The notes under the pieces were generated by a model, which saw only the letters and a program-made list of their open reading frames with translations, did no database searches and was not told where the DNA came from. Positions 17,067 to 47,993 of a stretch of 64,000 bases of DNA are shown here, in pieces. The first letter of the stretch is position 1. Each line of letters begins with the position of its first letter. Origin of the DNA: Escherichia coli (GTDB lineage: Bacteria > Pseudomonadota > Gammaproteobacteria > Enterobacterales > Enterobacteriaceae); assembly GCF_016026235.1 (NCBI RefSeq), contig NZ_CP065613.1; one strand, given 5' to 3'. The translations under genes were made by a program, and so were the position numbers.

Positions 17067-17534
17067 CCTGGCTTTTTAGCTACCAATACACTGATTTAGA
17101 TTAATTTTTCAAACCCTCTCTGCATACAATCGTTGATGAGAAAGGGTTATTGCGGAAATTAACTTCCGAATATAAGGTGACATTATGGTAATTGAATATT
17201 GGCTCTCCAATAATGCAGGAGGAAGTGTTACAGCTAACGGAATAGCAGGCAAGGTAACAATTCGGCAATTGGCTATTTTTAAGAATTATATTAAGTGTCA
17301 TTCAATATGGTTTTTAGGAGTTTCTTTAGGTTGACAATATTTAATATTGCGCCTCCACATGCGATATTTCTTAAATAATGTTTTATTATTACCACTTTTA
17401 ATTCAGGGATAATGTGAGGTTATTACCCTCAAATAATATGAGATAAATAGTGCTGCAACATTGCATTTTTTCCCCGATTTATCCATGATCGAATTGTGAC
17501 ATTTGTCATACAACGAATAGGTTTTGTACTTACT

Positions 17535-30548: not shown

Positions 30549-31297
30549 AGCGCCAGTGCCAACGTTTTATCATCATCCGTACGCTCGTTTACCGCCGGGC
30601 TGGACAAAAACTGCTTTAACAATTCAGGTAATAAATCGAGTTGTTCCTGCGTTGCTGACGCCAGTCCATTGAAAAACGGGGTAAAGAAAGGCACATGCGG
30701 AGAATTATCCAACATATTTAACGCCAGTCGCTGGATACCATCCGTAAATGCTGCAACTTTATGCACACGCTCAGTGCTGGTGAAAGTTTCCAGTCTGGAA
30801 ACGGCATCTTCATCGGTAATGAAGTGCGTCATATTGGCATATTCACCCACCATCGGCGTAAGCGGCAATTGCAGACCGTGACCAAAATCCACCACCACGC
30901 CGCCATCGCCAATCTGCATAATCAAGGTGCCATTAGCCGATGAAATCAATCCCAGAAACGTGCAGGCAAAATCGCGAACTGCTAATTCTTTGGCTTCCGC
31001 CTCGGCAAAAAGTCGCTGACGAACGGTCAGCACAATATCCGTGGCGAGGATATCATTAAGCCCCAATTCCCCACCCTGCACTTTTTGCGACATATAAGCC
31101 ATCGCTTCATTGACGGCGAGCGTCGCGCCTTCTCCTCCCTGCGAAACGCTACCTGCGCCATCAGCAAGGAACATCACCAGTAATGGCTGCTGGTCATTTA
31201 GCCAGGCAACCTGCATCTGGCAGGCATCCTGGCAAGGCAAGTCCGCGCTGATGTGCGACGTTCCAACAGCGGATGCATAAACCAGACGCCAGCTCAC
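30536..31297 (-). CDS. pphC: PP2C-family Ser/Thr protein phosphatase
   Basis: 253 aa; PP2C-like aspartate motifs ([18 protein letters not shown]); overlaps yegI by 13 nt. Confidence 0.85.
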
Positions 31298-31953
31298 ACT
31301 GACGTCCAGCCTTTTGGCGCTTCCAGCACAACTTCCGTTCCCGGCGTGGAGCGGGAAACCGAACGCAGCGAACTGGATAACCAGCTAAACAGTTCACGGA
31401 ATTGTAATCCTTGCAGAGGCAAAGGCTGACGAACGCTGATTTGTGCCAGAGTCTTCATATCCGCCCCCTGAACACCGATGGAAAAGAAAGCAAACCTTTT
31501 ATCTTCTTCCCCCCGAAACACTTTGTTGGCTGCAGCCTGCCACTCATCGGTTGGTGCACCATCGGTAATCAGGAAAATCCACGGGCGATAATACGAAATA
31601 CCATTTGCACGATACTCACGTTTCCGCTCCTCTACCATATCCAGGGCTTTGGTAATGGCCGCACCCATTGGTGTATCGCCCTGGGCAAACAGGATGGGCG
31701 GAAAAAAATTAGCGGCGCTGGTAAAGGGTTGTTCCACATGCACCGGGCCGAACGTCACAATGCCGAGTTCCACTCTTTTTAAAGCCAGCGAATCGGCAAG
31801 CAGCTCATCGCGAAAGGTAACCAATCCGGTGTTAAGTTCATTAATAGGTCTGCCACTCATCGAGCCAGAAACATCCAGCAGCAGAATGCAGGGGCAACGT
31901 GGTTCCGGGTTACTGGCAAAATCGCTGGTGGCAAACGTGATTTGTTCGCTCAT
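31294..31953 (-). CDS. yegL: von Willebrand factor A (vWA) domain protein
   Basis: 219 aa; MIDAS motif [10 protein letters not shown]; overlaps pphC by 4 nt. Confidence 0.85.
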
Positions 31954-32134
31954 AAGAAATCCTTTCTTAGAGAATTATTGAGGTCCGGTATCATACCGAC
32001 TGCAATAATGAAATAAGAGCAAACGAAGAAACTTTCAGAATTAGTCCCGGCGGCGCAGAAAATTTTGCTATTCGCCTCGCAAGAACGGAGAGCCGTCGAT
32101 TGACACTAAGGGCGGAGTGACATAATTTCAGGAG

Positions 32135-32278
32135 TGAGGGTTAGGGAGAGGTTTCCCCCTCCCCCTGGTGTTCTTAGTAAGCCTGGAAGCTAATCACTAA
32201 GAGTATCACCAGTATGATGACGTGCTTCATCATAACCCTTTCCTTATTAAAAGCCCTCTTCTCCGGGAGAGGCTTTCC
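32135..32278 (+). ncRNA. sibA: SibA antisense sRNA (type I antitoxin); coordinates approximate
   Basis: Sigma70-like promoter TTGACA(32100-32105)-17-TAATTT(32123-32128); transcript region fully antisense to the ibsA ORF; imperfect hairpin plus T-rich tail near 32251-32278. Confidence 0.6.
32174..32233 (-). CDS. ibsA: Ibs-family type I toxin peptide (19 aa)
   Basis: Minus-strand ORF ATGATGAAGCACGTC... translates to MMKHVIILVILLVISFQAY; too short for the ORF track. Confidence 0.65.
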   Translation of the reverse strand: MMKHVIILVILLVISFQAY

Positions 32279-32492
32279 CGTTTCAGCGTCCCGCTGAAAT
32301 CATCGGCTTACCTCCTTTCGCCCTGAATGCAGTCTATCGCTAACGCGTGAATAAAATAGTTTCCTCTGTGATTATTGCGTAACGACTCGCAAAGAATATT
32401 TGCTGGCAGGATCGCAGACTACAAAGCCTACGGATTGACAATCTTATCGTGAAGGCATACTTTCAGGAGTGAGGGTAGAGCGGGGTTTCCCC

Positions 32493-33786
32493 CTGAGGAA
32501 TCCCCAGAAAACAAGACAGGCATAGTGAGATGTGATCTAATTGATTGTGCTAACAATTTCAAGGAGATCACCACTATGCCTGCACGTTCATTATGCCAAA
32601 ATTTCCTTAACAACATACTGGCCCCTTTGCATCTTTACCGTCAAAAATCACTGATTGACGCAACTAATGCTGTAATAAATGGCGCTTCCCTCACACTTAC
32701 CAGTATCGGGCGTCATTTAACCGGTACGGCATCAGTTAAAAACAAAATAAAGCGGGTGGATCGACTGTTGGGGAATCGACATTTGCAAAATGAGGTTTCC
32801 ACCATTTTTCAGCGAATTACCCAAAAGATTACGCGGGGAATGTCTCGTGTTGTGATACTCATTGACTGGAGTGCTTATCATGCCTCTCGTTTTCAGCTTT
32901 TGCGGGCAAGCCTGGCATGTGACGGGCGTTCTTTACCGTTGATGAGTTGTGTCGTTCCATCATCACAGACAGCGAATGCAGATGTACATGAGCGTTTTCT
33001 GGAATCGCTTGCTGAGTGCTTTTCCCCCGGGACTGATGTCATTGTTATTACAGATGCCGGTTTTCAGGGGCGATGGTTCCAACAGCTCCGCTCCCGTGGC
33101 TGGACCTATATTTGCCGGGTACTGGGCAATCATTATTACAATGTTGGTAATGGCTGGGAAAAGGTGTCGGACTCAGGCACAAAAGCATCAACGACAGCAA
33201 TTTATTTAGGTGAAGGCCTGCTGGGTCGAGATAAAAATGCACAACATGAAGGGCATTTTTATCTTTATAAAAGTAAGCCTAAAGGTCGTAGATTTAAACG
33301 CTCGAAGGAAAGAGCAACCAGACCATCGGTGACGGCTAAAGCTCGTACTGCCGGGAAATCACCATGGTTTATTTTCACAAACAGTACTGAGTTCTCGCCA
33401 AAACAGGTAATGAAATTATACAGCCGTAGAATGCAAATTGAGCAAAATTTCAGGGATGAAAAAAATCCTCGCTGGGGATTTGGACTACGGTTTGGTGCCA
33501 GTCATTCATCCGGGCGGGTCACGGTATTGAGTCTGATCGCAACATTAGCCAGTATCATTATGTGGTTAAGCGGTTTCAGTCTGGAAAACAAAGGGATACA
33601 TCATAAATATCAGGCAAATACAGTGAAGCACAGGCGAGTCATCTCGTTATTAAAACTGGCGGAGAATGTGATTCGACATTCTCCACTCATACTAAACACA
33701 CTGTCACTTGACGCAGGGCTGAAAGTTCTACAGCAACGGTATACCAATATGATAATGGTTTACTAAATTTTCTGGGGATCCCTCAG
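32493..33786 (+). mobile_element. IS10-like insertion sequence (IS4 family), copy 1, 1294 bp
   Basis: Imperfect terminal inverted repeats CTGAGGAATCCCCAGAAAAC / CTGAGGGATCCCCAGAAAAT; flanking direct repeat GGGTTTCCCC (32483-32492 and 33787-33796; 10-12 bp depending on end assignment); encodes an IS10-like DDE transposase. Confidence 0.9.
32525..33766 (+). CDS. IS4-family (IS10-like) DDE transposase
   Basis: 413 aa; recognisable similarity to the IS10 transposase (KRVDRLLGNRHL, YSRRMQIEQNFRDEKN, HKYQANTVKHR); alternative start at MPARSL (32576). Confidence 0.9.
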   Translation: MRCDLIDCANNFKEITTMPARSLCQNFLNNILAPLHLYRQKSLIDATNAVINGASLTLTSIGRHLTGTASVKNKIKRVDRLLGNRHLQNEVSTIFQRITQKITRGMSRVVILIDWSAYHASRFQLLRASLACDGRSLPLMSCVVPSSQTANADVHERFLESLAECFSPGTDVIVITDAGFQGRWFQQLRSRGWTYICRVLGNHYYNVGNGWEKVSDSGTKASTTAIYLGEGLLGRDKNAQHEGHFYLYKSKPKGRRFKRSKERATRPSVTAKARTAGKSPWFIFTNSTEFSPKQVMKLYSRRMQIEQNFRDEKNPRWGFGLRFGASHSSGRVTVLSLIATLASIIMWLSGFSLENKGIHHKYQANTVKHRRVISLLKLAENVIRHSPLILNTLSLDAGLKVLQQRYTNMIMVY

Positions 33787-33912
33787 GGGTTTCCCCCGCC
33801 CTGGTAGCCTTAGTAAGCTGGCCAGCTAATGACTAAGAGCACCACGATGATGAGTAGCTTCATCATGACCCTTTCCTTATTTATGGCCCCTTCCTCGGGA
33901 GGGGCTTTCCCG
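33787..33912 (+). ncRNA. sibB: SibB antisense sRNA, 3' portion; promoter and first ~25 nt are separated by the IS (5' fragment about 32465-32492)
   Basis: Second copy of the Sib repeat unit: promoter TTGACA(32435-32440)-17-TACTTT(32458-32463), then the IS, then the remainder antisense to ibsB, ending in a hairpin plus T tail near 33885-33912. Confidence 0.55.
33810..33866 (-). CDS. ibsB: Ibs-family type I toxin peptide (18 aa)
   Basis: Minus-strand ORF translates to MMKLLIIVVLLVISWPAY. Confidence 0.65.
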   Translation of the reverse strand: MMKLLIIVVLLVISWPAY

Positions 33913-34144
33913 TTTCAGCGTCCCGCTGAAATCGGCGGCTTACCTCCTTTCGCCATGCAAGCAGTCTATCGCTAACGCGTAGATAAAATAGTTTCCTGTG
34001 TTATTACTGGATGCGTGCTCGCAAATGTGCCCGTCATTCAGACGATTCCCGACAGTGTTTCATAATTCCTCCATTTTTCTCCCTTATTGGCTGGCTACAC
34101 TAGTATCATTCCGCGAAACGTTTCAGGAAGAGAAACTCTTAACG

Positions 34145-35392
34145 ATGAAAGGCAGTTATAAATCCCGTTGGGTAATCGTAATCGTGGTGGTTATCGCCGC
34201 CATCGCCGCATTCTGGTTCTGGCAAGGCCGCAATGACTCCCAGAGTGCAGCCCCAGGGGCGACGAAACAAGCGCAGCAATCGCCAGCGGGTGGTCGCCGT
34301 GGTATGCGTTCCGGCCCATTAGCCCCGGTTCAGGCGGCGACCGCCGTAGAACAGGCAGTTCCGCGTTACCTCACCGGGCTTGGCACCATTATCGCCGCTA
34401 ATACTGTTACGGTGCGCAGCCGCGTGGACGGTCAACTGATGGCGTTACATTTCCAGGAAGGCCAGCAGGTCAAAGCAGGCGATTTACTGGCAGAAATTGA
34501 CCCCAGCCAGTTCAAAGTTGCATTAGCACAAACCCAGGGCCAACTGGCAAAAGATAAAGCCACGCTTGCTAACGCCCGCCGTGATCTGGCGCGTTATCAG
34601 CAACTGGCAAAAACCAATCTCGTCTCCCGTCAGGAGCTGGATGCCCAACAGGCGCTGGTCAGTGAAACCGAAGGCACCATTAAGGCTGATGAAGCAAGCG
34701 TCGCCAGCGCGCAGTTGCAACTCGACTGGAGCCGCATCACCGCACCAGTCGATGGTCGCGTTGGTCTCAAGCAGGTTGATGTTGGTAACCAAATCTCCAG
34801 TGGTGATACCACCGGAATTGTGGTGATCACCCAGACGCATCCTATCGATTTAGTCTTTACCCTGCCGGAAAGCGATATCGCTACTGTAGTGCAGGCGCAA
34901 AAAGCCGGAAAACCGCTGGTGGTAGAAGCCTGGGATCGCACCAATTCGAAGAAATTAAGTGAAGGCACGCTGTTAAGCCTCGATAACCAAATCGATGCCA
35001 CAACCGGTACGATTAAAGTGAAAGCACGCTTTAATAATCAGGATGATGCGCTGTTTCCCAATCAGTTTGTTAACGCGCGCATGTTAGTCGACACCGAACA
35101 AAACGCCGTAGTGATCCCAACAGCCGCCCTGCAAATGGGCAATGAAGGCCATTTTGTCTGGGTGCTGAATAGCGAAAACAAGGTCAGCAAACATCTGGTG
35201 ACGCCGGGCATTCAGGACAGTCAGAAAGTGGTGATCCGTGCAGGTATTTCTGCGGGCGATCGCGTGGTGACAGACGGCATTGATCGCCTGACCGAAGGGG
35301 CGAAAGTGGAAGTGGTGGAAGCCCAGAGCGCCACCACTCCGGAAGAGAAAGCCACCAGCCGCGAATACGCGAAAAAAGGAGCACGCTCCTGA
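34145..35392 (+). CDS. mdtA: RND efflux membrane fusion protein
   Basis: ORF track 33998..35392; start trimmed to [16 protein letters not shown] (signal-anchor); periplasmic adaptor family. Confidence 0.9.
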
Positions 35393-38300
35393 TGCAGGTG
35401 TTACCCCCGAGCAGCACAGGCGGCCCGTCGCGCCTGTTTATTATGCGTCCTGTCGCCACCACGCTGCTGATGGTGGCGATCTTACTCGCCGGGATTATCG
35501 GTTATCGCGCCCTGCCCGTTTCGGCGCTGCCGGAAGTGGACTATCCGACCATTCAGGTGGTCACGCTCTACCCAGGTGCCAGCCCGGATGTCATGACCTC
35601 TGCCGTTACCGCGCCGCTCGAACGCCAGTTCGGGCAGATGTCTGGCCTGAAACAGATGTCGTCGCAAAGTTCCGGCGGTGCGTCAGTTATCACTTTGCAG
35701 TTCCAGCTAACATTACCGCTCGATGTCGCCGAGCAGGAAGTGCAGGCCGCGATTAACGCTGCGACCAACTTGTTGCCGAGCGATCTGCCTAACCCGCCGG
35801 TTTACAGCAAAGTGAACCCGGCAGATCCGCCGATCATGACGCTCGCCGTCACCTCAACCGCCATGCCGATGACGCAAGTGGAAGATATGGTGGAAACCCG
35901 CGTCGCGCAGAAAATCTCGCAGATTTCCGGCGTCGGCCTGGTGACGCTTTCCGGCGGTCAGCGTCCGGCTGTTCGCGTCAAACTTAACGCTCAGGCGATT
36001 GCCGCCCTCGGCCTGACCAGCGAAACCGTGCGCACCGCCATTACCGGCGCTAACGTTAACTCGGCAAAAGGTAGCCTCGACGGCCCTTCCCGTGCGGTCA
36101 CGCTTTCCGCGAACGACCAGATGCAATCCGCCGAAGAGTATCGCCAGCTAATCATCGCCTACCAGAACGGCGCGCCAATTCGTCTGGGCGATGTCGCAAC
36201 TGTAGAGCAAGGTGCAGAAAACAGCTGGCTCGGCGCGTGGGCGAACAAAGAACAGGCCATTGTGATGAATGTTCAGCGCCAGCCCGGTGCTAACATTATC
36301 TCCACCGCCGACAGCATTCGGCAGATGCAGCCACAGCTCACTGAGAGTCTGCCGAAATCGGTGAAGGTGACAGTGCTTTCCGATCGCACCACCAATATCC
36401 GCGCATCCGTCGATGATACTCAGTTTGAATTGATGATGGCTATCGCGCTGGTAGTCATGATTATCTACCTGTTTTTGCGCAATATTCCGGCGACCATCAT
36501 TCCCGGTGTTGCTGTACCGCTGTCGTTAATCGGCACTTTCGCGGTTATGGTGTTTCTCGATTTTTCAATCAATAACCTGACACTGATGGCGTTAACTATC
36601 GCCACCGGATTCGTGGTCGATGACGCCATCGTGGTGATCGAAAACATTTCCCGCTATATCGAAAAAGGCGAAAAACCGTTGGCGGCGGCGCTCAAGGGCG
36701 CAGGTGAAATCGGCTTTACCATTATCTCGCTGACCTTCTCACTGATTGCGGTGTTGATCCCACTGCTGTTTATGGGCGATATCGTCGGGCGACTGTTCCG
36801 CGAATTTGCTATTACCCTGGCGGTAGCGATTTTGATCTCAGCGGTGGTGTCGCTGACCCTGACACCGATGATGTGCGCGCGGATGCTCAGCCAGGAGTCG
36901 TTGCGTAAACAGAACCGCTTCTCCCGTGCCTCGGAAAAAATGTTCGACAGGATAATCGCCGCCTATGGTCGTGGACTGGCGAAAGTGCTGAATCATCCGT
37001 GGCTGACCTTAAGCGTGGCACTCAGCACGCTGCTGCTTAGCGTGCTGCTGTGGGTGTTCATTCCGAAAGGTTTCTTCCCGGTACAGGACAATGGCATTAT
37101 TCAGGGCACTTTGCAGGCACCGCAATCCAGCTCCTTTGCCAATATGGCCCAGCGACAACGCCAGGTCGCGGACGTGATTTTGCAGGATCCGGCAGTGCAA
37201 AGCCTGACCTCATTTGTTGGCGTTGATGGCACTAACCCGTCGCTGAATAGTGCACGTTTACAAATCAACCTCAAACCGTTGGATGAACGTGATGATCGGG
37301 TGCAAAAAGTCATCGCCCGTCTGCAAACGGCGGTAGATAAAGTGCCGGGCGTCGATCTCTTCCTGCAACCAACGCAGGATCTGACTATTGATACTCAGGT
37401 CAGCCGCACCCAGTACCAGTTTACCTTGCAGGCCACCTCACTGGATGCGCTCAGTACCTGGGTGCCACAGTTGATGGAAAAACTCCAGCAACTGCCACAG
37501 CTTTCTGATGTCTCCAGCGACTGGCAGGACAAAGGGCTGGTGGCGTATGTCAATGTTGATCGCGACAGCGCCAGCCGTCTGGGGATCAGCATGGCGGATG
37601 TCGATAACGCCCTGTACAACGCGTTTGGTCAGCGACTGATTTCCACTATTTATACTCAGGCTAACCAGTATCGCGTGGTGCTGGAGCACAACACCGAAAT
37701 TACCCCGGGCCTCGCGGCGCTGGATACCATTCGCCTGACCAGTAGCGACGGCGGCGTGGTGCAGTTAAGCTCAATTGCCAAAGTTGAACAGCGTTTTGCG
37801 CCGCTTTCCATCAACCATCTGGATCAGTTCCCGGTAACGACCATCTCCTTTAACGTGCCGGATAACTATTCGCTGGGCGATGCGGTGCAGGCGATTATGG
37901 ACACCGAAAAGACGCTGAATCTGCCGGTGGATATCACCACGCAGTTCCAGGGCAGCACCCTCGCCTTCCAGTCGGCGCTGGGCAGCACTGTCTGGCTGAT
38001 TGTCGCGGCGGTGGTGGCGATGTATATCGTGCTCGGCATTCTGTACGAGAGCTTTATTCACCCGATCACCATTCTCTCGACGCTACCCACCGCAGGAGTC
38101 GGCGCACTGCTGGCGTTAATGATTGCCGGTAGCGAACTGGATGTGATTGCGATTATCGGCATTATTTTGCTGATCGGTATCGTGAAGAAGAACGCCATCA
38201 TGATGATCGACTTCGCGCTGGCTGCTGAGCGCGAGCAAGGCATGTCGCCGCGCGATGCCATCTACCAGGCTTGTCTGTTGCGTTTTCGTCCGATCCTGAT

Positions 38301-38514
38301 GACCACTCTGGCGGCTCTGCTTGGCGCGCTGCCGCTGATGTTGAGTACCGGGGTCGGCGCGGAACTGCGTCGTCCGTTAGGTATCGGCATGGTCGGCGGC
38401 CTGATTGTCAGCCAGGTGCTGACGCTGTTTACCACGCCGGTGATTTATCTGCTGTTCGACCGCCTGGCATTGTGGACCAAAAGTCGCTTTGCTCGCCATG
38501 AAGAGGAGGCGTAA
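35392..38514 (+). CDS. mdtB: RND multidrug efflux transporter subunit
   Basis: 1040 aa; 12-TM RND permease; start overlaps the mdtA stop (TGATG). Confidence 0.93.
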
Positions 38515-41500
38515 GTGAAGTTTTTTGCCCTCTTCATTTACCGTCCGGTGGCGACGATTTTACTGTCGGTTGCCATTACCCTGTGCGGCATACTGGGCTT
38601 CCGTATGCTGCCGGTCGCCCCGCTGCCGCAGGTCGATTTTCCGGTGATTATGGTCAGCGCCTCGCTGCCCGGTGCGTCACCAGAAACAATGGCGTCTTCC
38701 GTTGCCACGCCGCTGGAGCGCTCACTTGGGCGCATTGCCGGAGTCAGTGAAATGACCTCCAGCAGTTCGCTCGGCAGCACGCGTATTATTTTGCAGTTTG
38801 ATTTTGACCGGGATATCAACGGCGCGGCGCGCGATGTGCAGGCGGCGATCAACGCTGCACAAAGTTTGCTGCCCAGCGGGATGCCCAGCCGTCCGACCTA
38901 TCGCAAAGCTAACCCGTCGGATGCGCCAATTATGATCCTCACGCTGACATCCGATACTTATTCGCAGGGTGAACTGTACGATTTCGCCTCGACGCAGCTG
39001 GCTCCGACGATTTCGCAAATCGACGGTGTTGGTGATGTCGATGTCGGCGGCAGCTCACTGCCCGCCGTACGCGTCGGGCTGAATCCGCAGGCGCTGTTTA
39101 ATCAGGGCGTCTCGCTGGACGACGTACGCACTGCCATCAGCAATGCCAACGTGCGTAAACCGCAGGGGGCGCTGGAAGATGGCACTCACCGCTGGCAGAT
39201 CCAGACCAATGATGAGCTAAAAACCGCCGCCGAATATCAGCCGCTGATTATTCATTACAACAACGGCGGCGCGGTTCGTCTGGGCGATGTGGCGACAGTG
39301 ACCGACTCTGTACAGGATGTACGTAACGCCGGGATGACCAATGCCAAACCGGCTATTTTGCTGATGATCCGCAAGCTGCCGGAAGCCAATATTATCCAGA
39401 CGGTTGACAGCATCCGGGCAAAATTACCGGAGTTGCAGGAAACCATTCCGGCGGCGATTGATCTGCAAATTGCCCAGGATCGCTCCCCCACCATTCGCGC
39501 CTCGCTGGAAGAAGTCGAGCAAACGCTGATTATCTCGGTGGCGCTGGTGATTCTGGTGGTGTTTTTATTCCTGCGCTCGGGTCGCGCCACTATTATTCCC
39601 GCCGTTTCGGTGCCGGTTTCGCTGATTGGTACGTTTGCGGCGATGTACCTGTGCGGATTCAGTCTCAATAACCTTTCGTTAATGGCGCTCACCATCGCTA
39701 CTGGTTTCGTGGTGGATGACGCCATCGTGGTGCTGGAAAACATTGCCCGTCATCTGGAAGCGGGAATGAAACCGTTGCAAGCCGCACTGCAAGGTACTCG
39801 CGAAGTCGGTTTTACGGTGCTGTCGATGAGTCTGTCACTGGTGGCGGTGTTCCTGCCGCTGCTGTTGATGGGCGGATTGCCGGGCCGACTGTTACGCGAG
39901 TTTGCCGTGACGCTTTCTGTCGCCATTGGTATTTCGTTGCTGGTTTCCCTGACGCTAACGCCAATGATGTGCGGCTGGATGCTAAAAGCCAGCAAGCCGC
40001 GTGAGCAAAAGCGACTGCGTGGTTTTGGTCGCATGTTGGTTGCCCTGCAACAAGGCTACGGCAAGTCACTGAAATGGGTGCTCAATCATACCCGTCTGGT
40101 GGGCGTAGTGCTGCTTGGCACCATTGCGCTGAATATCTGGCTATATATCTCGATCCCGAAAACCTTCTTCCCGGAGCAGGACACTGGCGTGTTGATGGGC
40201 GGGATTCAGGCGGATCAGAGTATTTCGTTTCAGGCGATGCGCGGTAAGTTGCAGGATTTCATGAAAATTATCCGTGACGATCCGGCAGTGGATAATGTCA
40301 CCGGCTTTACAGGCGGTTCGCGAGTGAACAGCGGGATGATGTTTATCACCCTCAAGCCACGCGACGAACGCAGCGAAACGGCGCAGCAAATTATCGACCG
40401 TCTGCGCGTAAAACTGGCGAAAGAACCGGGGGCGAATCTGTTCCTGATGGCGGTACAGGATATTCGCGTTGGTGGGCGTCAGTCGAACGCCAGCTACCAG
40501 TACACGTTGTTATCCGACGACCTGGCGGCACTGCGAGAATGGGAGCCGAAAATCCGCAAAAAACTGGCGACGTTGCCGGAACTGGCGGACGTGAACTCCG
40601 ATCAGCAGGATAACGGCGCGGAGATGAATCTGGTTTACGACCGCGACACCATGGCACGGCTGGGAATCGACGTACAAGCCGCCAACAGTCTGTTAAATAA
40701 CGCCTTCGGTCAGCGGCAAATCTCGACCATTTACCAGCCGATGAACCAGTATAAAGTGGTGATGGAAGTGGATCCGCGCTATACCCAGGACATCAGTGCG
40801 CTGGAAAAAATGTTCGTTATCAATAACGAAGGCAAAGCGATCCCGCTGTCGTATTTCGCTAAATGGCAACCGGCGAATGCCCCACTATCGGTGAATCATC
40901 AGGGATTATCGGCGGCCTCGACCATTTCGTTTAACCTGCCGACCGGAAAATCGCTCTCGGACGCCAGTGCGGCGATCGATCGCGCAATGACCCAGCTTGG
41001 GGTGCCTTCGACGGTGCGCGGCAGTTTTGCCGGCACGGCGCAGGTGTTCCAGGAGACGATGAACTCGCAGGTGATCCTGATTATCGCCGCCATCGCCACG
41101 GTGTATATCGTGCTGGGTATCCTTTACGAGAGTTACGTACATCCGCTGACGATTCTCTCCACCCTGCCCTCGGCGGGCGTTGGAGCGCTGTTGGCGCTGG
41201 AGCTGTTCAATGCCCCGTTCAGCCTAATCGCCCTGATAGGGATCATGCTATTAATCGGCATCGTGAAGAAAAACGCCATTATGATGGTCGATTTTGCGCT
41301 TGAAGCCCAACGGCACGGTAACCTGACGCCGCAGGAAGCTATTTTCCAGGCCTGTCTGCTGCGTTTTCGCCCGATTATGATGACCACCCTGGCGGCGCTG
41401 TTTGGTGCGCTGCCGCTGGTATTGTCGGGCGGCGACGGCTCGGAGCTGCGGCAACCCCTGGGGATCACCATTGTCGGCGGACTGGTAATGAGCCAGCTCC

Positions 41501-41592
41501 TTACGCTGTATACCACGCCGGTGGTGTATCTCTTTTTCGACCGTCTGCGGCTGCGTTTTTCGCGTAAACCTAAACAAACGGTAACCGAGTAA
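38515..41592 (+). CDS. mdtC: RND multidrug efflux transporter subunit
   Basis: 1025 aa; paralogous to mdtB; GTG start immediately after the mdtB stop. Confidence 0.93.
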
Positions 41593-43008
41593 ATGACAGA
41601 TCTTCCCGACAGCACCCGTTGGCAATTGTGGATTGTGGCTTTCGGCTTCTTTATGCAGTCGCTGGACACCACCATCGTAAACACCGCCCTTCCCTCAATG
41701 GCGCAAAGCCTCGGGGAAAGTCCGTTGCATATGCACATGGTCATTGTCTCTTATGTGCTGACCGTGGCGGTGATGCTGCCCGCCAGCGGCTGGCTGGCGG
41801 ACAAAGTCGGCGTGCGCAATATTTTCTTTACCGCCATCGTGCTGTTTACTCTCGGTTCACTGTTTTGCGCGCTTTCCGGCACGCTGAACGAACTGTTGCT
41901 GGCACGCGCGTTACAGGGCGTTGGCGGCGCGATGATGGTGCCGGTCGGCAGATTGACGGTGATGAAAATCGTACCGCGCGAGCAATATATGGCGGCGATG
42001 ACCTTTGTCACGTTACCCGGTCAGGTCGGTCCGCTGCTCGGTCCGGCGCTCGGCGGTCTGCTGGTGGAGTACGCGTCGTGGCACTGGATCTTTTTGATCA
42101 ACATTCCGGTGGGGATTATCGGTGCGATCGCCACATTGCTGTTAATGCCGAACTACACCATGCAGACGCGGCGCTTTGATCTCTCCGGATTTTTATTGCT
42201 GGCGGTTGGCATGGCGGTATTAACCCTGGCGCTGGACGGCAGTAAAGGTACAGGTTTATCGCCGCTGACGATTGCAGGCCTGGTCGCAGTTGGCGTGGTG
42301 GCACTGGTGCTTTATCTGCTGCACGCCAGAAATAACCACCGCGCTCTTTTCAGTCTGAAACTGTTCCGCACTCGTACCTTTTCGCTGGGCCTGGCGGGGA
42401 GCTTTGCCGGACGTATTGGCAGTGGCATGTTGCCCTTTATGACACCGGTTTTCCTGCAAATTGGCCTCGGTTTCTCGCCTTTTCATGCCGGACTGATGAT
42501 GATCCCGATGGTGCTCGGCAGCATGGGGATGAAGCGAATTGTGGTACAGGTGGTGAATCGCTTTGGCTATCGTCGGGTACTGGTGGCAACCACGCTTGGC
42601 CTGTCGCTGGTCACCCTGTTGTTTATGACTACCGCCCTGCTGGGCTGGTACTACGTTTTGCCGTTCGTCCTGTTTTTACAAGGGATGGTCAACTCGACGC
42701 GTTTCTCCTCCATGAACACCCTGACGCTGAAAGATCTCCCGGACAATCTGGCGAGCAGCGGCAACAGCCTACTGTCGATGATTATGCAATTGTCGATGAG
42801 TATCGGCGTCACTATCGCCGGGCTGTTGCTGGGACTTTTTGGTTCACAGCATGTCAGCGTCGACAGCGGCACCACACAAACCGTCTTTATGTACACCTGG
42901 CTTAGCATGGCGTTGATCATCGCCCTTCCGGCGTTCATCTTTGCCAGAGTGCCGAACGATACGCATCAAAATGTAGCTATTTCGCGGCGAAAAAGGAGCG
43001 CGCAATGA
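41593..43008 (+). CDS. mdtD: MFS transporter
   Basis: 471 aa; 14-TM MFS-like protein. Confidence 0.9.
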
Positions 43009-44408
43009 AGTTCTGGCGACCCGGTATTACCGGCAAACTGTTTCTGGCGATTTTCGCCACCTGCATTGTCTTGCTGATCAGTATGCACTGGGCGGTGCGT
43101 ATCAGTTTTGAGCGTGGCTTTATTGATTACATCAAGCATGGTAATGAACAGCGATTACAACTGTTAAGTGATGCGCTTGGCGAGCAGTATGCGCAGCATG
43201 GCAACTGGCGCTTCCTGCGCAACAATGATCGCTTTGTCTTTCAGATCCTGCGTTCATTTGAACACGATAATTCGGAAGATAAACCCGGCCCGGGTATGCC
43301 ACCGCACGGCTGGCGTACCCAGTTCTGGGTGGTTGATCAAAACAACAAAGTGCTGGTTGGTCCGCGAGCGCCGATTCCACCTGACGGTACACGGCGACCC
43401 ATTCTGGTCAACGGTGCGGAAGTTGGCGCGGTGATCGCCTCCCCCGTTGAGCGGTTAACGCGCAATACTGATATCAATTTCGATAAACAACAGCGGCAAA
43501 CCAGCTGGTTGATTGTCGCCCTGGCAACGTTACTCGCGGCACTTGCCACTTTTCTGCTGGCGCGCGGTTTACTGGCACCGGTAAAACGACTTGTCGATGG
43601 CACGCACAAACTGGCGGCGGGCGATTTCACTACCCGCGTAACGCCCACCAGTGAAGATGAACTGGGCAAACTGGCGCAAGACTTCAACCAGCTTGCCAGC
43701 ACACTGGAGAAAAACCAGCAAATGCGGCGCGATTTTATGGCCGATATTTCTCACGAACTGCGTACGCCATTAGCGGTGCTGCGCGGTGAACTGGAAGCCA
43801 TTCAGGATGGCGTGCGTAAATTCACGCCGGAGACGGTGGCGTCTTTACAGGCGGAGGTCGGTACACTGACCAAACTGGTTGACGATCTCCATCAGTTGTC
43901 GATGTCTGATGAAGGCGCTCTCGCCTATCAAAAAGCACCGGTAGATTTGATCCCACTGCTGGAAGTGGCGGGCGGCGCATTTCGCGAACGATTCGCCAGT
44001 CGTGGCCTGAAACTGCAATTTTCCCTGCCAGACAGTATTACCGTATTTGGCGATCGCGACCGTTTAATGCAGTTATTCAATAACTTACTTGAAAACAGCC
44101 TGCGCTATACTGACAGCGGCGGCAGCCTGCAAATCTCTGCCGGGCAGCGCGACAAAACGGTGCGCCTGACCTTTGCCGACAGTGCGCCAGGTGTCAGTGA
44201 CGATCAGCTACAAAAATTGTTTGAACGTTTTTATCGCACCGAAGGTTCCCGCAACCGTGCCAGCGGCGGTTCCGGGCTGGGGCTGGCGATTTGCCTGAAC
44301 ATTGTTGAAGCACATAATGGTCGCATTATTGCTGCCCATTCGCCTTTTGGCGGGGTAAGCATTACAGTAGAGTTACCGCTGGAACGGGATTTACAGAGAG
44401 AAGTATGA
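43005..44408 (+). CDS. baeS: Envelope-stress sensor histidine kinase
   Basis: 467 aa; two TM segments, HAMP, H-box [12 protein letters not shown], ATPase G-box GGSGLGLAI. Confidence 0.93.
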
Positions 44409-45127
44409 CCGAGTTACCAATCGACGAAAACACACCGCGTATTTTGATCGTGGAAGATGAACCGAAGCTGGGGCAGTTGCTCATTGATTATCTGCGTGCT
44501 GCGAGCTATGCGCCGACGCTTATCAGCCACGGCGATCAGGTACTGCCGTATGTGCGCCAGACACCACCGGATCTGATCCTGTTAGATCTGATGCTCCCTG
44601 GCACCGATGGCCTGACGCTGTGCCGGGAAATTCGTCGTTTTTCTGACATTCCGATCGTGATGGTGACGGCAAAAATCGAAGAGATCGATCGCCTGCTGGG
44701 GCTGGAGATTGGCGCAGATGACTACATCTGCAAGCCGTACAGCCCACGGGAAGTGGTAGCGCGCGTCAAAACCATTTTGCGCCGTTGCAAACCGCAGCGC
44801 GAGTTGCAGCAACAGGATGCTGAAAGCCCGTTGATTATCGACGAAGGTCGTTTTCAGGCTTCATGGCGCGGTAAAATGCTTGACCTGACGCCTGCGGAAT
44901 TTCGTCTGCTGAAAACGCTCTCTCATGAACCAGGAAAAGTGTTCTCCCGCGAGCATTTGCTCAATCATCTTTATGACGACTACCGCGTAGTAACCGACCG
45001 CACCATCGACAGCCACATTAAAAACCTGCGCCGCAAGCTGGAATCTCTCGACGCCGAACAGTCATTTATCCGCGCCGTTTACGGCGTCGGTTACCGCTGG
45101 GAAGCCGACGCCTGCCGCATCGTTTAG
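44405..45127 (+). CDS. baeR: OmpR-family response regulator
   Basis: 240 aa; receiver motif [11 protein letters not shown] and winged-helix C-terminus. Confidence 0.93.
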
Positions 45128-45281
45128 TTTTAGCGACATTATTTTGTTAGCCGGAGATGGCGTTCAGACCCGATCCGGCCACATTATCCCACGCATGGTC
45201 AGCAAACTGACATTATCTCTCCGCCCTGGCAGGCATCAGAAAATCGCTCATACTTTAATCGGTAAACAGCACCTTTAGATG

Positions 45282-46707
45282 TAATGCCAGTCAGTTAAGC
45301 AACTGACTGGCTCTTTTTCGGGGCTGTGGGGTATTTCCAGGGCCTCTCCTTTACCACTCTCGGGAAGGCCCTTCCCCTTCTCGTCGGTAATTTCACAAGT
45401 TGTCCCATACTTGCAAGATCGCGCATCAGCTCCGGTATACGTCCCGGTGAAGCGCCCTGCAATGTCATCAGCATTCTCATCACCATTCCGCATGATTCTG
45501 AGAAACTCAGTTGATTCGGCCAGTAACCTTTCAGATGTTCCGCCATTTTAATCATCTGATATCTCACCAGATTATAAGCCAGTAAGACACCCCACAGCTC
45601 TTGCTCCACAAGCTCCGGCTTTTTACTTCTCAGCGTCAGCCTGCTCAGTTGCATCGTCTGTTTTATCTCCCTGTATCCCAGTTCGATTTCCCAGCGATGA
45701 CTGTACAGATCCGCCATTTCTCCTCCGGGGAAGCGCATGGCGTCCGTCATCGACGTCAGCAGATGGCAGACTTTTCCTTTGCGCGTCACGGTCAGCAGGC
45801 GGGCTGTCACTTCATTTCCCAGTCCCGGCCACTTTTTTCGTGCCTGCGGGCTGGTTTTCAGCTTCACCAGATGATCGCCTTTACCCAGTTTTCTGAGCTC
45901 TTCATATTGCGCTCCCTTTCTGAGAGGTATCATCCAGTGGCGGTGTTCTCCCGCCAGGCTCCAGGCATTTAACAGTCCCAGTGAGTAATAACCTTTATCC
46001 ATTAACGTCAGAGTGTTATCGCCGGTTTGTTCTATAAGTTGCTCAGCAAGCTCATTTTCGCTGTTCTTCATCGTGCCGAAGGCTGCAGCCGTCAGCAGAT
46101 GGCTGGTCAGTTCCATCTGGCAGACCATTTTGACCTGCGGGTAGAGCGCCGGGTTCCCGGCATGTGTCTGGCGGGGGAAGGCTGCATCGTTCTCTGGTGT
46201 ATCCGGTGTGCGCCAGAACACACCATCGATGGCCAGCAGGGTCAGGCCGCACCAGTGCGGATGCGGCGTGGCGTTATGCCAGAGCTGCGCTGTTTTCGTG
46301 AACACGCGGCGGACAGCCTCACTTCCCAGGCGCTGGCGGGCCTGAATAACGGCACTGGGGGCAACGAAGGGGCGATTGCCCGGCAGCATGATGTCCAGGC
46401 GATTCACAATCTGGTGAAGAGGTTCTTTACGCTCAAGCGCCATGCCAACAATACACCAGACCATCATTTCGAGGGGAAGACGGCGCTTGCGTAGCGTTAC
46501 AGTACCTGATTCGGCAAGGCAACGAGAGATGAGTTCGGGGTCGAGGTAATCCCCCAGAGAAGTCAGTGGGTTACGCAGAGAATCGTAACGGGATACCAGA
46601 TCAAGAGCCTGTCCAATGTGCATAAAAAAATCCGGAAACAAGTGAGCGTTTCCGGATTCTTACACAGCCACTGGATCGGTCAACTGATCCTTAACTGATC
46701 GGCATTA
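45282..46707 (-). mobile_element. IS4 insertion sequence, 1426 bp
   Basis: 18-bp imperfect terminal inverted repeats TAATGCCAGTCAGTTAAG / TAATGCCGATCAGTTAAG; 12-bp target-site duplication CACCTTTAGATG at 45270-45281 and 46708-46719; length matches IS4. Confidence 0.93.
45295..46641 (-). CDS. insG: IS4 DDE transposase
   Basis: 448-aa ORF (likely start at [13 protein letters not shown]); DDE motifs [30 protein letters not shown]. Confidence 0.92.
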
Positions 46708-46755
46708 CACCTTTAGATGCTGTTTTCGATACACAATTTCAATCAAGGAGTCATT

Positions 46756-47088
46756 ATGGCTGGTTGGTTTGAACTCAGTAAGAGCAGTGATAATCAGTTC
46801 CGGTTTGTGCTAAAAGCGGGCAATGGTGAGACTATCCTCACCAGCGAGCTGTATACCTCAAAAGCCTCTGCGGAAAAGGGCATCGCGTCGGTGCGTAGCA
46901 ACAGCCCGCAAGAAGAACGCTATGAGAAAAAAACGGCAAGTAACGGCAAATTCTATTTCAATCTGAAAGCCGCTAATCATCAAATTATCGGCTCCAGCCA
47001 GATGTACGCCACCGCGCAATCTCGTGAAACCGGAATTGCCTCCGTTAAAGCCAATGGCACAAGCCAGACGGTGAAAGACAATACGTAA
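46756..47088 (+). CDS. yegP: YegP (UPF0339/DUF1508 tandem-repeat protein)
   Basis: ORF track 46717..47088; start trimmed to MAGWFEL with SD AAGGAG at 46745-46750; two DUF1508-like repeats. Confidence 0.85.
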   Translation: MAGWFELSKSSDNQFRFVLKAGNGETILTSELYTSKASAEKGIASVRSNSPQEERYEKKTASNGKFYFNLKAANHQIIGSSQMYATAQSRETGIASVKANGTSQTVKDNT

Positions 47089-47240
47089 TTACGATGCCGG
47101 GCGTGGGTTGTTGGCGTCCGGCTTTATATCCAAATAACGCTTAGTTATTAATAATTAAGAGTAACCGCCGCCATTAAAATAGTGGGCACTGACGAGCACT
47201 CGTTGTGCTTTCTTTGTTTACCATCCCATACTTATCCTCC

Positions 47241-47252
47241 TGAACATGTTCA
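47241..47252. promoter_or_regulatory. Perfect 12-bp palindrome TGAACATGTTCA, candidate operator upstream of parDE
   Basis: Palindrome sits about 90 bp upstream of the parD start, within a likely promoter region. Confidence 0.35.
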
Positions 47253-47341
47253 TGTGCCAAAATATCTTCTAATACTTTCGTGACGCTATCCGGTTTATGA
47301 CATACACTGATGTAAGATTTTTACTTACAGGCGGGCGTAAA

Positions 47342-47593
47342 ATGGCCAGAACGATGACGGTTGATCTCGGCGATGAGTTGCGTGAATTTATCGAGTCCTT
47401 AATTGAATCCGGCGACTATCGCACCCAAAGCGAAGTGATCCGTGAGTCACTGCGATTACTTCGAGAAAAGCAAGCAGAGTCTCGCCTGCAAGCGTTACGT
47501 GACATGCTCGCAGAAGGGTTGAGTAGTGGTGAAGCTCAGCCGTGGGAAAAGGACGCGTTCTTACGGAAGGTGAAAGCAGGGATAAGGAAATAA
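47342..47593 (+). CDS. parD: ParD-family antitoxin (ribbon-helix-helix)
   Basis: ORF track 47297..47593; likely start at MARTMTV; resembles ParD/COG3609 antitoxins (TQSEVIRESLRLLREKQ); immediately upstream of a ParE-like ORF. Confidence 0.8.
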   Translation: MARTMTVDLGDELREFIESLIESGDYRTQSEVIRESLRLLREKQAESRLQALRDMLAEGLSSGEAQPWEKDAFLRKVKAGIRK

Positions 47594-47594
47594 T

Positions 47595-47891
47595 GTGCGT
47601 ATTATTAAACTCATGCCAAAAGCCAATGAGGATTTAGAAGGCATCTGGTATTACAGCTATCACCATTTCGGCGAACCACAAGCCGACAGATATGTGGAAC
47701 ATCTTTCAGACGTTCTCCAGATTCTGAGTAACAATAATATAGGTACGCCCAGACCTGAATTAGGCGAAGGTATTTTTGTTCTTCCTTTTGAACGCCACGT
47801 CATTTATTTCCTGCAATCACCAGGGGAAATTATCGTCATTCGTATCCTTAACCAAAACCAGAACGCCACCAGACATTTACACTGGAGCTAA
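47595..47891 (+). CDS. parE: ParE-family toxin (RelE/ParE superfamily)
   Basis: 98 aa; GTG start 1 nt after the parD stop, preceded by SD AAGGA; N-terminal EDLEGIWYYS and C-terminal IIVIRILNQNQNATRHL resemble ParE toxins. Confidence 0.8.
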   Translation: MRIIKLMPKANEDLEGIWYYSYHHFGEPQADRYVEHLSDVLQILSNNNIGTPRPELGEGIFVLPFERHVIYFLQSPGEIIVIRILNQNQNATRHLHWS

Positions 47892-47993
47892 ACCCGCCGA
47901 TTGCGCTACAATGCCCGCCCTTAAAGTGGGGGCACTCCCCTAACCGCTTCATCAGGTGAAGCGGATCTGACCTGTCATCAGAACGAGAGAATT

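Follow-up and report, generated by a model that had tools for sequence, protein, structure and literature searches.

The locus between yegL and mdtA raises the question of whether two toxin peptides that seemed to depart from their reference sequences near the C-terminus represent new toxin variants. Ibs proteins are hydrophobic membrane toxins of 18–19 amino acids, and ibs is repressed by antisense Sib RNA. In the window, i.e., the entire 64,000-nt stretch of Escherichia coli DNA that was analyzed, this locus consists of two tandem ibs/sib type I toxin-antitoxin modules, in the same place as ibsA/sibA and ibsB/sibB of strain K-12. In each module, the Ibs toxin lies on the minus strand and is fully overlapped by an antisense Sib RNA on the plus strand. 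The reading favored here, with a probability of roughly 0.8, is that the first module is K-12-like, that the second encodes a natural Ibs allele whose W residue was driven by RNA-level divergence, that the insertion sequence ISEc60 occupies the sibB hairpin, and that the antitoxin has likely been kept. This leaves no new toxin variant, since the first peptide matches the reference and the second is an already catalogued allele, present in about one tenth of complete E. coli genomes. More notable than either peptide is the mobile element inside the RNA-antidote gene of the second module. The features involved are as follows.

32136–32279, plus strand: sibA antitoxin sRNA gene, intact; maps onto K-12 sibA (b4436); Rfam RF00113
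32174–32233, minus strand: ibsA toxin CDS, 19 aa, MMKHVIILVILLVISFQAY; DNA and protein as in K-12 b4667; Pfam PF13956
32435–32463, plus strand: sibB-type promoter with putative hexamers (-35 TTGACA at 32435–32440, 17-nt spacer, -10 TACTTT at 32458–32463)
32471–32492, plus strand: sibB 5' stub, nt +1 to +22; carries the 5' arm of P1 plus one half of the P2 hairpin, severed from the remainder of the gene
32483–32492: target-site duplication GGGTTTCCCC, left copy; single copy in K-12
32493–33786, plus strand: ISEc60 (IS4 family), 1,294 bp, delimited by comparison with the K-12 empty site
32516–32586, plus strand: predicted hairpin over the transposase Shine-Dalgarno (SD) sequence and AUG (MFE fold of 32471–32620)
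32576–33766, plus strand: ISEc60 transposase CDS, 396 aa, codirectional with sib; NCBIfam NF033591, Pfam DDE_Tnp_1
33727–33756, plus strand: weak promoter-like site at the IS right end (TCTACA, 18-nt spacer, GATAAT; 9/12 consensus)
33787–33796: target-site duplication GGGTTTCCCC, right copy; single copy in K-12
33787–33910, plus strand: W-type body of the split sib gene, from nt +13 through the 3' end; Rfam RF00113
33810–33866, minus strand: second ibs toxin CDS, 18 aa, MMKLLIIVVLLVISWPAY; identical to RefSeq WP_100249772.1; Pfam PF13956 label in L028
33816–33838, plus strand: equivalent of SibC TRD1 (+46 to +68), P5 hairpin, from alignment to SibC and folding
33866–33884, plus strand: equivalent of SibC TRD2 (+99 to +115), identical to K-12 SibB
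33885–33914, plus strand: intrinsic terminator of Sib, with a GC-rich stem of 9 bp, a CTCG loop, and a T-rich tail

Identity of the two modules

Rfam SIB_RNA (RF00113), with a gathering score of 56, matched the window at 32100–32248 (149.5 bits) and at 33749–33881 (72.3 bits), and both ibs CDSs are covered by these matches on the opposite strand. The sibB 5' stub alone yielded a partial match of 27.8 bits at 32435, under the gathering score. IbsA scored 88.7 bits against Pfam PF13956 (Ibs_toxin; cutoff 27) when two concatenated copies were used as the query, the PF13956 label is carried by the identical 18-aa product in L028, a locus 100% identical to the window, and PGAP names the identical W-allele CDS ‘type I toxin-antitoxin system Ibs family toxin’. 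Because they are antisense to RF00113 matches and bear the Pfam label, the ibs reading frames are genes rather than chance ORFs. Residues K3 and L11 are present in both peptides.

The sibA gene is a single contiguous unit of the ~136–145-nt type, with its own promoter and a closing P1. The second module does not have such a contiguous gene: the promoter, which was placed relative to the annotated 5' end of K-12 sibB (position 1347 of reference locus L001, corresponding to 32471 in the window), and nt +1 to +22 (together 32435–32492) are parted from 33787–33910 by 1,294 bp. TRD1, TRD2, and the terminator are all present in its sib body.

A reference peptide and a catalogued allele

The translations given for the two genes in the earlier note were borne out, with 32174–32233 and 33810–33866 on the minus strand encoding MMKHVIILVILLVISFQAY and MMKLLIIVVLLVISWPAY, respectively, each followed by a stop codon. 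Its suggestion that both peptides differ from their K-12 references holds for only one of them. K-12 IbsA is MMKHVIILVILLVISFQAY, to which the window gene is identical in both DNA and protein, so Q17 is the reference residue and not, as had been supposed, a substitution in a peptide ending in ISFPAY. The identity extends beyond the CDS, with zero differences from K-12 across 32046–32429, and module 1 (ibsA/sibA) is the same as that of K-12. The second peptide does differ, as had been proposed: K-12 IbsB is MMKLLIIVVLLVISFPAY and ends in SFPAY, while the window peptide ends in SWPAY owing to F15W (TTC to TGG); codons 13 and 16 differ as well, but silently. For IbsB of K-12, the annotation goes no further than ‘putative toxic peptide’.

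The W-type CDS is annotated, in identical form, as WP_100249772.1 in strains SF-468, LD27-1, and KTa005. Using 37-nt allele-specific probes with a 28-nt seed, which forces an exact match over codons 14–18 in every hit, the W allele was found in 523 of 5,426 complete E. coli genomes (~10%) and the K-12 allele in 2,982. In strains with three or four copies, the W copy sits beside a K-12-type F copy, often as an extra tandem copy next to K-12-type ibsB. W15 is thus not a new or private substitution, and, given its place beside an F copy, the window gene is more aptly regarded as a separate paralogue or allele within the array than as an ibsB that has mutated. Among Ibs alleles, residue 15 is F, W, or Y, and thus always aromatic. 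Over 33786–34126, the window matches the third tandem unit of LD27-1, a strain in which the array is uninterrupted, at 100% identity, and neither the ibs(W) CDS nor its downstream flank shows decay.

Residue 15 and antisense RNA recognition

In the SibC recognition model (Han et al., 2010, PMC2943612), the P5 loop carries TRD1 and J1/7 carries TRD2; both elements are located in variable regions, and cognate specificity is determined by them. The window TRD1 is antisense to ibs codons 10–17, W15 included. Five positions differ from K-12, and four of them (33819, 33822, 33823, and 33828) fall within TRD1 at 33816–33838. Folding indicates that the P5 hairpin is kept in both alleles, with an apical loop of GGGGAA in K-12 and GGCC in the window. 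Across 15 distinct B-type units, 11 columns of the CDS vary, seven of them in TRD1 and four in or next to the P6 apical loop.

F15W thus falls in the P5 apical loop of Sib, i.e., in TRD1, the element that lets each Sib recognize only its own ibs mRNA. The pattern of variation among alleles of the array could account for the F/W/Y polymorphism, which may be a by-product of RNA-level divergence in specificity between tandem copies, subject to the constraint that residue 15 must stay aromatic. We infer that F15W is best explained by such divergence and not by a change in toxin function, a reading that rests on where the variation lies. Because Ibs polymorphisms map onto the loops through which antisense RNA is recognized, differences between the proteins should not by default be ascribed to adaptation of the protein, and the same caution should apply to overlapping toxin/antisense pairs in general.

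ISEc60 within sibB

The element that splits sibB 22 nt past its transcription start occupies 1,294 bp (32493–33786) of the span reported in the earlier note, which was silent on it. It has 19-bp terminal inverted repeats with one mismatch (CTGAGGRATCCCCAGAAAA) and is flanked by a 10-bp duplication, GGGTTTCCCC, a single copy of which is carried by the K-12 empty site, GAGCGGGGTTTCCCCCGCC. A 9-bp duplication, typical of IS10, was ruled out, as the empty-site comparison requires at least 10 bp. The single DDE transposase ORF scored 360.5 bits against NF033591 (IS4 family; cutoff 152) and 74 bits against PF01609 (DDE_Tnp_1), and PGAP labels the equivalent CDS of RMDEC332 an ‘IS4-like element ISEc60 family transposase’. 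The copy in sibB is 1 nt away from those in EIEC-like strains and 2 nt away from a second copy in the window.

Transcripts entering from outside the IS are predicted to fold into the hairpin at 32516–32586, which would sequester the transposase SD sequence and AUG. An Rfam E-value scan of the region returned no match to RNA-OUT. At the other end of the element, the promoter-like site at 33727–33756 is a candidate from which outward transcription could begin ~25 nt short of the IS end; a promoter scan of the region found six such sites against 3.3 expected by chance, and a 9/12 match is therefore not evidence of function.

Insertion sites were gathered from E. coli genomes and by exact lookup of the transposase protein, which is present in roughly 500 public assemblies; when the ISEc60 left end was sought among GTDB representative genomes, there were zero matches. 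The 11 independent sites share a GG-N8-CC target, which the P2 hairpin of sibB fits, and they include homologous plasmid hairpins struck in both orientations. The entry of ISEc60 into sibB is thus explained by the match of the P2 hairpin to this preference, and the rule should be useful in annotation. The target has an AT-rich center and is often a hairpin with a GC stem. ISEc60 copies are also found next to hok genes. IS231A has the target specificity GGG(N)5CCC, which the ISEc60 target resembles, and a preference for GG-N8-CC with an AT-rich center differs from the IS10 hotspot.

History of the interrupted array

ISEc60 is bordered on its left by a sibB promoter of the K-12 type and on its right by the body of the third, W-type copy, a combination that points to a three-copy ancestor carrying ibsA, ibsB-F, and ibs-W. 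From these flanks we infer a deletion route in which two neighboring sib genes would each have received an IS copy, with later recombination between these copies removing ibsB-F. Intermediates of this route are seen directly in VL46, CFSAN029787, and RMDEC364.

The insertion is fixed in the window lineage. L028 is identical to the window over 21,318 bp, an exact match exists in GCA_014155105.1, and ~20 further assemblies have the same gene neighborhood; the IS boundary is where one draft contig (L029) terminates. Among complete E. coli genomes, the closest reach only 98.9–99.4% identity over 34000–53300. A Shigella or EIEC-like label for the window lineage would be a guess. ISEc60 also occurs at the same sib position in four complete E. 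coli genomes from human stool isolates and in L025 (CP065624.1), which differs from the window at 130 of 8,248 positions. The IS-bearing sib sites are followed by at least three different downstream ibs alleles, and the orientation of ISEc60 is always the same, which could reflect shared descent or gene conversion instead of independent hits.

Fate of the antitoxin after the insertion

The sib(W) body starts just past the transposase stop codon, and a sequence scan detected no strong plus-strand terminator within the IS. By folding, the RNA downstream of the IS keeps the TRD1 hairpin, P6, and the terminator, while P1 and P2 are absent; any RNA initiated within the IS lacks P1. The 5' end of SibC is dispensable, in that SibC(30–141) retains full activity and TRD1 (+46 to +68) suffices; TRD2 function needs P1 (PMC2943612). 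Since TRD1 alone suffices, the toxin would stay repressed if the sib body were transcribed. The body may be made as the 3' end of transcripts that read through the IS from the sibB promoter or from the IS's own promoter, or alternatively it may come from an outward promoter internal to the IS. Judging from the arrangement of these elements, the antitoxin is probably still transcribed, most likely by read-through. On read-through transcripts, the fold-back hairpin would block translation of the transposase, leaving 1.2 kb of untranslated RNA on which Rho could end transcription before the sib body is reached. With an IS between the Sib promoter and the functional domains and an intact ibs gene opposite, the locus constitutes a natural test of whether Sib is essential.

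Weighing the alternatives

A tandem repeat combined with a multicopy IS, at which draft assemblies break, is a setting in which the variant residues might be suspected of being sequencing or assembly errors. This has practically no probability: error as the source of W is refuted by the base-for-base identity of the W-allele CDS across many independent complete genomes and by L028, which is identical to the window over the whole locus. It is also improbable that F15W, together with Q17 of IbsA, represents meaningful C-terminal substitutions under protein-level selection for altered toxicity or target. The aromatic residue always found at position 15 does imply some constraint on the peptide there, and the portion of a review concerned with IbsC mutagenesis includes C-terminal residues in the minimal toxic sequence, residues 6–19 (the content of Fozo, 2008, PMC2597788, and Mok, 2010, PMC3009890, doi 10.1074/jbc.M110.149179, is given here as cited in PMC2943612 and PMC8309996). 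Against such selection, Q17 is the K-12 residue, and W15 is a conservative aromatic swap carried by ~10% of complete genomes that travels with synonymous changes in flanking codons, all of them in the loop and stem of Sib TRD1. In an alanine scan of Salmonella IbsA, moreover, toxicity was lost only in H3A and L11A, which leaves positions 3 and 11 as the only essential ones (bioRxiv 10.1101/2025.05.26.656083); in both window peptides these are occupied by a basic residue, K3, and by L11.

The retention of the antitoxin has a more serious competitor, namely that the IS abolishes the Sib of this module and that the loss is tolerated, either because ibs(W) mRNA from the chromosome has low expression or little toxicity or because another Sib cross-represses it; we regard this as possible, at somewhat worse than even odds. 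SibA, acting through shared TRD2-like sequence, is an example of the proposed cross-repressor. The bare annotation of K-12 IbsB as putatively toxic is compatible with tolerance, as are the viability of SibA-deficient cells, for which cross-recognition was suggested (PMC2943612), the viability of a Salmonella sibA promoter mutant (bioRxiv 10.1101/2025.05.26.656083), the fact that IS elements commonly inactivate hok loci on the chromosome (Pedersen and Gerdes, 1999, as cited in PMC6733600), and the plausibility of Rho termination on untranslated read-through RNA. Tolerance is harder to reconcile with the death of cells lacking Sibs other than SibA when the cognate ibs is expressed (Fozo, 2008, as cited in PMC2943612), and the contiguous TRD2 stretch common to Sib(W) and SibA is just ~14 nt long, compared with the 22–25-bp helices shown to work (PMC2943612). 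The lack of a detected plus-strand terminator in the IS and the undecayed state of the ibs CDS and flank likewise argue for retention. A further proposal, which we consider unlikely, is that ISEc60 has changed the wiring of the module, with antitoxin now arising solely as the 3' end of IS-traversing transcripts and with either IS ‘addiction’ or partial derepression of Ibs(W) as the outcome. If so, antitoxin supply would be coupled to transcription of the transposase gene, and partial derepression might benefit an invasive E. coli or Shigella-like lineage, as reported for the Salmonella sibA promoter mutant. Selection for antitoxin disruption, e.g., for higher Ibs levels in such lineages, has also been considered as the reason for repeated ISEc60 insertion at sib, and its likelihood is low. 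The window lineage, the four stool genomes, and L025 carry the insertion with several downstream ibs alleles, the orientation is constant, and the Salmonella mutant spread more between macrophages (bioRxiv 10.1101/2025.05.26.656083), but the sib site fits the target consensus of 11 unrelated sites, plasmid hairpins hit in both orientations included, and the variety of downstream alleles is explained by recombination between IS copies or repeats, with observed intermediates. Insertion through target preference, followed by continued antitoxin synthesis, is the reading preferred here.

Comparison with known systems

With respect to K-12, the window IbsA/SibA pair is 100% identical to b4667/b4436. 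The second module shares with K-12 ibsB/sibB (b4668/b4437) its position, gene order, strands, promoter, terminator, and TRD2, and its left flank up to sibB +22 is 99.4% identical. It differs in that the gene is split by ISEc60 at +22 and that the body is W-type, with five nucleotide differences at 33808–33828; unlike K-12 ibsB, this body corresponds to the third copy of three-copy strains. The window RNA folds with the same P5, P6, and terminator architecture as in the SibC/ibsC model (PMC2943612), and allelic variation in its family is concentrated in TRD1 and the P6 loop, as it is across the five K-12 paralogues. Those paralogues were the subject of the earlier comparison, whereas here the same pattern is found, from sequence alone, among population alleles of one array.

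Members of the IS10 subgroup are 1200–1350 bp long, have ends beginning with CT, and generate 9-bp direct repeats (PMC2266710, Table 1). ISEc60, at 1,294 bp, shares the size range, the CT ends, the single DDE ORF, and a target duplication of ~10 bp; the duplication is not, however, the 9 bp of the subgroup, since it measures 10 bp at 10 of the sites and 11 bp at the remaining one. The predicted hairpin that would sequester the transposase start codon resembles IS10 fold-back inhibition. IS-disrupted hok/sok of E. coli K-12, as described in PMC6733600, offers a parallel at the level of the toxin-antitoxin locus, in that the IS adjoins a type I toxin ORF but lies outside it, as is also the case here. 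In contrast to hok/sok, ISEc60 lies inside the antitoxin RNA gene, codirectional with it and between its promoter and recognition domains, and it leaves intact both the toxin gene and the region upstream of that gene.

Identity of the ibs Genes and Their Peptides

Two short open reading frames lie between yegL and mdtA, the place of ibsA/sibA and ibsB/sibB in K-12 MG1655:

31294-31953, yegL
32174-32233, minus strand, ibsA, translated as MMKHVIILVILLVISFQAY and a stop
33810-33866, minus strand, second ibs coding sequence (18 aa), translated as MMKLLIIVVLLVISWPAY and a stop
34145-35392, mdtA

Both are genes rather than chance open reading frames, because each is antisense to a match to the Rfam family SIB_RNA (RF00113; 149.5 bits opposite ibsA and 72.3 bits opposite the second, gathering score 56 bits) and PF13956 is found on both products, by a Pfam match for IbsA and, for the 18-aa product, as the label in L028 (GCA_014155105.1), a public locus 100% identical to the window. 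Minus-strand translation returned both peptides, MMKHVIILVILLVISFQAY and MMKLLIIVVLLVISWPAY, as the earlier note gave them. That note had suspected Q and W near their C-termini of being substitutions. For IbsA the suspicion was unfounded, since K-12 ibsA (b4667) has the same DNA and the same translation, MMKHVIILVILLVISFQAY, and Q17 is therefore the reference residue. For the second peptide it was correct: relative to K-12 IbsB (b4668, translated as MMKLLIIVVLLVISFPAY), F15W is real (TTC to TGG), a conservative aromatic swap. Two synonymous changes (codon 13, ATA to ATT; codon 16, CCC to CCA) and one further difference two bases beyond the stop codon bring the total to five within 33808-33828.

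In strains SF-468, LD27-1, and KTa005 the identical W-peptide coding sequence carries the annotation WP_100249772.1. A 37-nt probe centered on the variant cluster matched 523 of 5,426 complete E. coli genomes, and its K-12 version matched 2,982; because megablast requires an exact seed of 28 nt, 33809-33827 (codons 14-18) is exact in any match. The W peptide is thus a common natural allele, and what the earlier note had found is ordinary, i.e., one reference peptide and one catalogued allele.

Between yegL and mdtA, strains carry a variable number of tandem ibs/sib units, from two to four, whose peptides include ...ISFPAY, ...ISWPAY, ...ISYPAY, ...VSYPAY, ...VSWPAY, and MMKWIII...ISFPAY; strain KTa005 has an IbsA variant starting MRK. 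The full range of array sizes occurs even among strains with identical MdtA (loci L003, L004, L006, and L016-L025), IS-free genomes with identical MdtA carry three or four ibs copies, and the units occur in shuffled order, W being the second unit in certain strains but the third elsewhere, an indication of frequent unequal recombination. In LD27-1 and locus L023 the order is ibsA, ibsB-F (Phe at residue 15), ibs-W. Window positions 33786-34126 are 100% identical to the third unit of LD27-1 and its mdtA-proximal flank, and the W gene of the window is therefore a distinct array member rather than a mutated K-12 ibsB.

Variable Codons and Antisense Recognition

In the work of Han et al. (2010, PMC2943612), SibC was found to recognize ibsC mRNA by two independent target-recognition domains: TRD1 (+46 to +68, the P5 loop) is directed at the ORF, and TRD2 (+99 to +115) at the region of translation initiation. 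The two domains fall in the stretches that vary most across the Sib family, and exchanging them makes SibC act on ibsD. Alignment to SibC places their equivalents here:

33816-33838, TRD1 equivalent, antisense to ibs codons 10-17
33866-33884, TRD2 equivalent, unchanged relative to K-12

Of the five positions that differ from K-12, four lie in the TRD1 equivalent. The P5 hairpin is predicted to fold alike for both alleles, with the apical loop GGGGAA in K-12, opposite TTC-CCC (Phe-Pro), and GGCC within UGGCCA in the W allele, opposite TGG-CCA (Trp-Pro). Across 15 distinct B-type (ibsB-like) units, 11 coding columns vary, seven in TRD1 and four in or adjacent to the P6 apical loop, which faces codons 4-5; all remaining coding columns are invariant. 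Alanine scanning of Salmonella IbsA identified H3 and L11 as the only essential residues (bioRxiv 10.1101/2025.05.26.656083), and K3 and L11 are kept in both window peptides. One reservation is that, according to a review's summary of IbsC mutagenesis, C-terminal residues fall within the minimal toxic sequence. We infer that the F/W/Y polymorphism is for the most part a side effect of divergence in the antisense specificity loop, with an aromatic residue kept as a constraint. This mapping of a peptide polymorphism onto antisense-RNA recognition loops is of secondary interest.

The W-allele TRD1 core, AGCTGGCCAGCT (33817-33828), is a perfect 12-nt palindrome, so that Sib(W) and ibs(W) mRNA share a hairpin with a self-complementary GGCC loop. 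Judged from the sequence, kissing dimers between two Sib RNAs or two mRNAs are conceivable for the W allele and not for the K-12 allele.

Insertion of ISEc60 in sibB and the Fate of the Antitoxin

The earlier note overlooked an insertion sequence within sibB:

32435-32463, sibB promoter (putative hexamers TTGACA and TACTTT, 17-nt spacer)
32493-33786, ISEc60, IS4 family, 1,294 bp, with 19-bp terminal inverted repeats (one mismatch)
32576-33766, plus strand, ISEc60 transposase, 396 aa (NF033591, 360.5 bits; Pfam DDE_Tnp_1)

A 10-bp duplication, GGGTTTCCCC, borders the element on both sides, and the empty site in K-12 reads GAGCGGGGTTTCCCCCGCC. Because the annotated 5' end of K-12 SibB maps to 32471, the insertion follows nucleotide +22. 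The promoter and first 22 nt now lie 1.3 kb from the remainder of the gene (33787-33910), and in Rfam the split gene gives a stub of 27.8 bits and a body of 72.3 bits. Lineage-specific SNPs relative to K-12 and EIEC-like strains occur in the yegL-sibB interval at 31979, 32045, and 32430, the last (A in the window, G in the others) 5 nt upstream of the sibB -35 hexamer.

The most likely reading, to which we assign a probability of about 0.5, is that an anti-ibs RNA would still be made and the antitoxin retained. Nucleotides +1 to +29 of SibC are dispensable and TRD1 suffices for repression (Han et al., PMC2943612), and, from 21 nt past the transposase stop, the sequence beyond the element preserves TRD1, TRD2, the P6 hairpin, and the terminator. 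In the predicted fold of an RNA spanning 33767-33910, P1 and P2 are the only parts lost; the TRD1 hairpin, P6, and the terminator remain. Such an RNA could form the 3' portion of a transcript that starts at the sibB promoter or at a promoter of the IS and continues across the element, no convincing plus-strand terminator having been found within the IS, or could start at a promoter-like site at 33727-33756; the weak match of this candidate outward promoter counts against retention. Cells that lack a Sib other than SibA reportedly die when the cognate ibs mRNA is expressed (Fozo, 2008, as cited in PMC2943612), and the ibs coding sequence and flank are free of decay.

The lack of decay and the absence of a convincing plus-strand terminator within the IS speak against a second possibility, regarded as plausible though somewhat doubtful, that the antitoxin has been lost and its loss tolerated. 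The K-12 hok loci inactivated by insertion sequences offer a precedent (Pedersen and Gerdes, 1999, as cited in PMC6733600), and sibA-deficient strains are viable (PMC2943612; bioRxiv 10.1101/2025.05.26.656083). Loss would also be favored by a long hairpin predicted at 32516-32586, in which CAGGCAUAGUG...GUGAUCU pairs with AGAUCAC...CACUAUGCCUG, hiding the transposase SD and AUG; with its start codon so sequestered, read-through RNA may stay untranslated and be Rho-terminated. The predicted hairpin resembles the fold-back inhibition of externally initiated transcripts in IS10; an E-value scan of 31900-34200 gave no match to Rfam RNA-OUT.

Origin and Spread of the Arrangement

ISEc60 occupies the yegL-mdtA ibs/sib locus in only 4 of 5,426 complete E. 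coli genomes. In strain VL46 the order is ibsA, IS, ibsB-F, third copy, mdtA; in CFSAN029787 the second and third sib genes each carry ISEc60 at the equivalent position; and in RMDEC364 the third-copy body comes immediately after a single IS, as expected if two IS copies had recombined. The window shares this final structure, with a left flank (ibsA-ibsB spacer and sibB promoter) 99.4% identical to K-12 and, on the right, a W-type third-copy body 100% identical to LD27-1. While the intermediates in VL46, CFSAN029787, and RMDEC364 are observed, the route that we infer from them is that two sib-borne copies recombined to leave one IS and the third-copy body. The window ISEc60 differs by one base from the copies in these strains, against 12-15 differences over 340 positions of the right flanks, which indicates that ISEc60 is recent and resides in different sib haplotypes by lineage. 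L028 is identical to the window across 21,318 bp, IS included, and about 20 more assemblies share the gene neighborhood; the insertion is lineage-fixed, not a one-off. The draft contig of locus L029 stops at window position 32487, just short of the IS.

Target Preference and Relation to Known Systems

Further elements and RNA features of the window are:

2443-2492, algC RNA motif (Rfam, 76.6 bits)
17055-17093, JUMPstart element, upstream of colanic acid genes (Rfam, 57.3 bits)
45282-46707, IS4-type element, 1,426 bp, between baeR and trhP (yegQ); transposase ORF 45295-46641, minus strand
49438-49523, CyaR sRNA (Rfam, 100.7 bits)
51389-52168, gatR
52268-53308, minus strand, gatD
53341-54634, second ISEc60 copy, with duplications GGATAAACTC at 53331-53340 and 54635-54644
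54660-56015, minus strand, gatC

The second ISEc60 copy, 2 nt different from the first, sits in the short gatC/gatD gap; a polar effect on gatD is probable, and galactitol use may be altered. Here gatR is an uninterrupted ORF of 259 aa, and in K-12 it is presumably interrupted by an IS. The 1,426-bp element has inverted repeats TAATGCC(A/G)(G/A)TCAGTTAAG and a 12-bp duplication, CACCTTTAGATG. Three IS elements in the window suggest an IS-rich genome, possibly Shigella- or EIEC-like.

Eleven independent ISEc60 insertion sites comprise sib, the gatC-gatD copy, an mscL disruption, several plasmid and chromosomal hairpins, and two hok-adjacent sites. All 11 fit G|G-N8-C|C with an A/T-rich center, and the duplication is 10 bp in all except one (11 bp). 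Many are GC-stem hairpins, e.g., terminators, and the sibB P2 hairpin, GCGGGGTTTCCCCCGC, is a typical target. In L032 and L040 (public loci), ISEc60 lies in GC-stem hairpins directly beside hok-family (PF01848) type I toxin genes, and hairpin preference may steer it repeatedly to type I toxin-antitoxin loci. Two copies stand head to tail with only the 10-bp GGGATTTACC between them in L015 (pCFSAN029787_01) and L032/L033 (GCA_031665585.1), which are unrelated replicons, the outer flanks of L032/L033 carrying GGGATTTTCC; such tandem dimers may be transposition intermediates or insertions into a duplicated target.

The target preference of ISEc60 is similar to that of IS231A, GGG(N)5CCC. In size and CT ends the element fits the IS10 subgroup, although its duplication is longer than the 9 bp of that subgroup (PMC2266710). 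The parting of a type I antitoxin from its promoter by a lineage-fixed, hotspot-driven IS is of secondary interest, and neither this insertion nor the recognition-loop mapping falls outside known kinds of systems.
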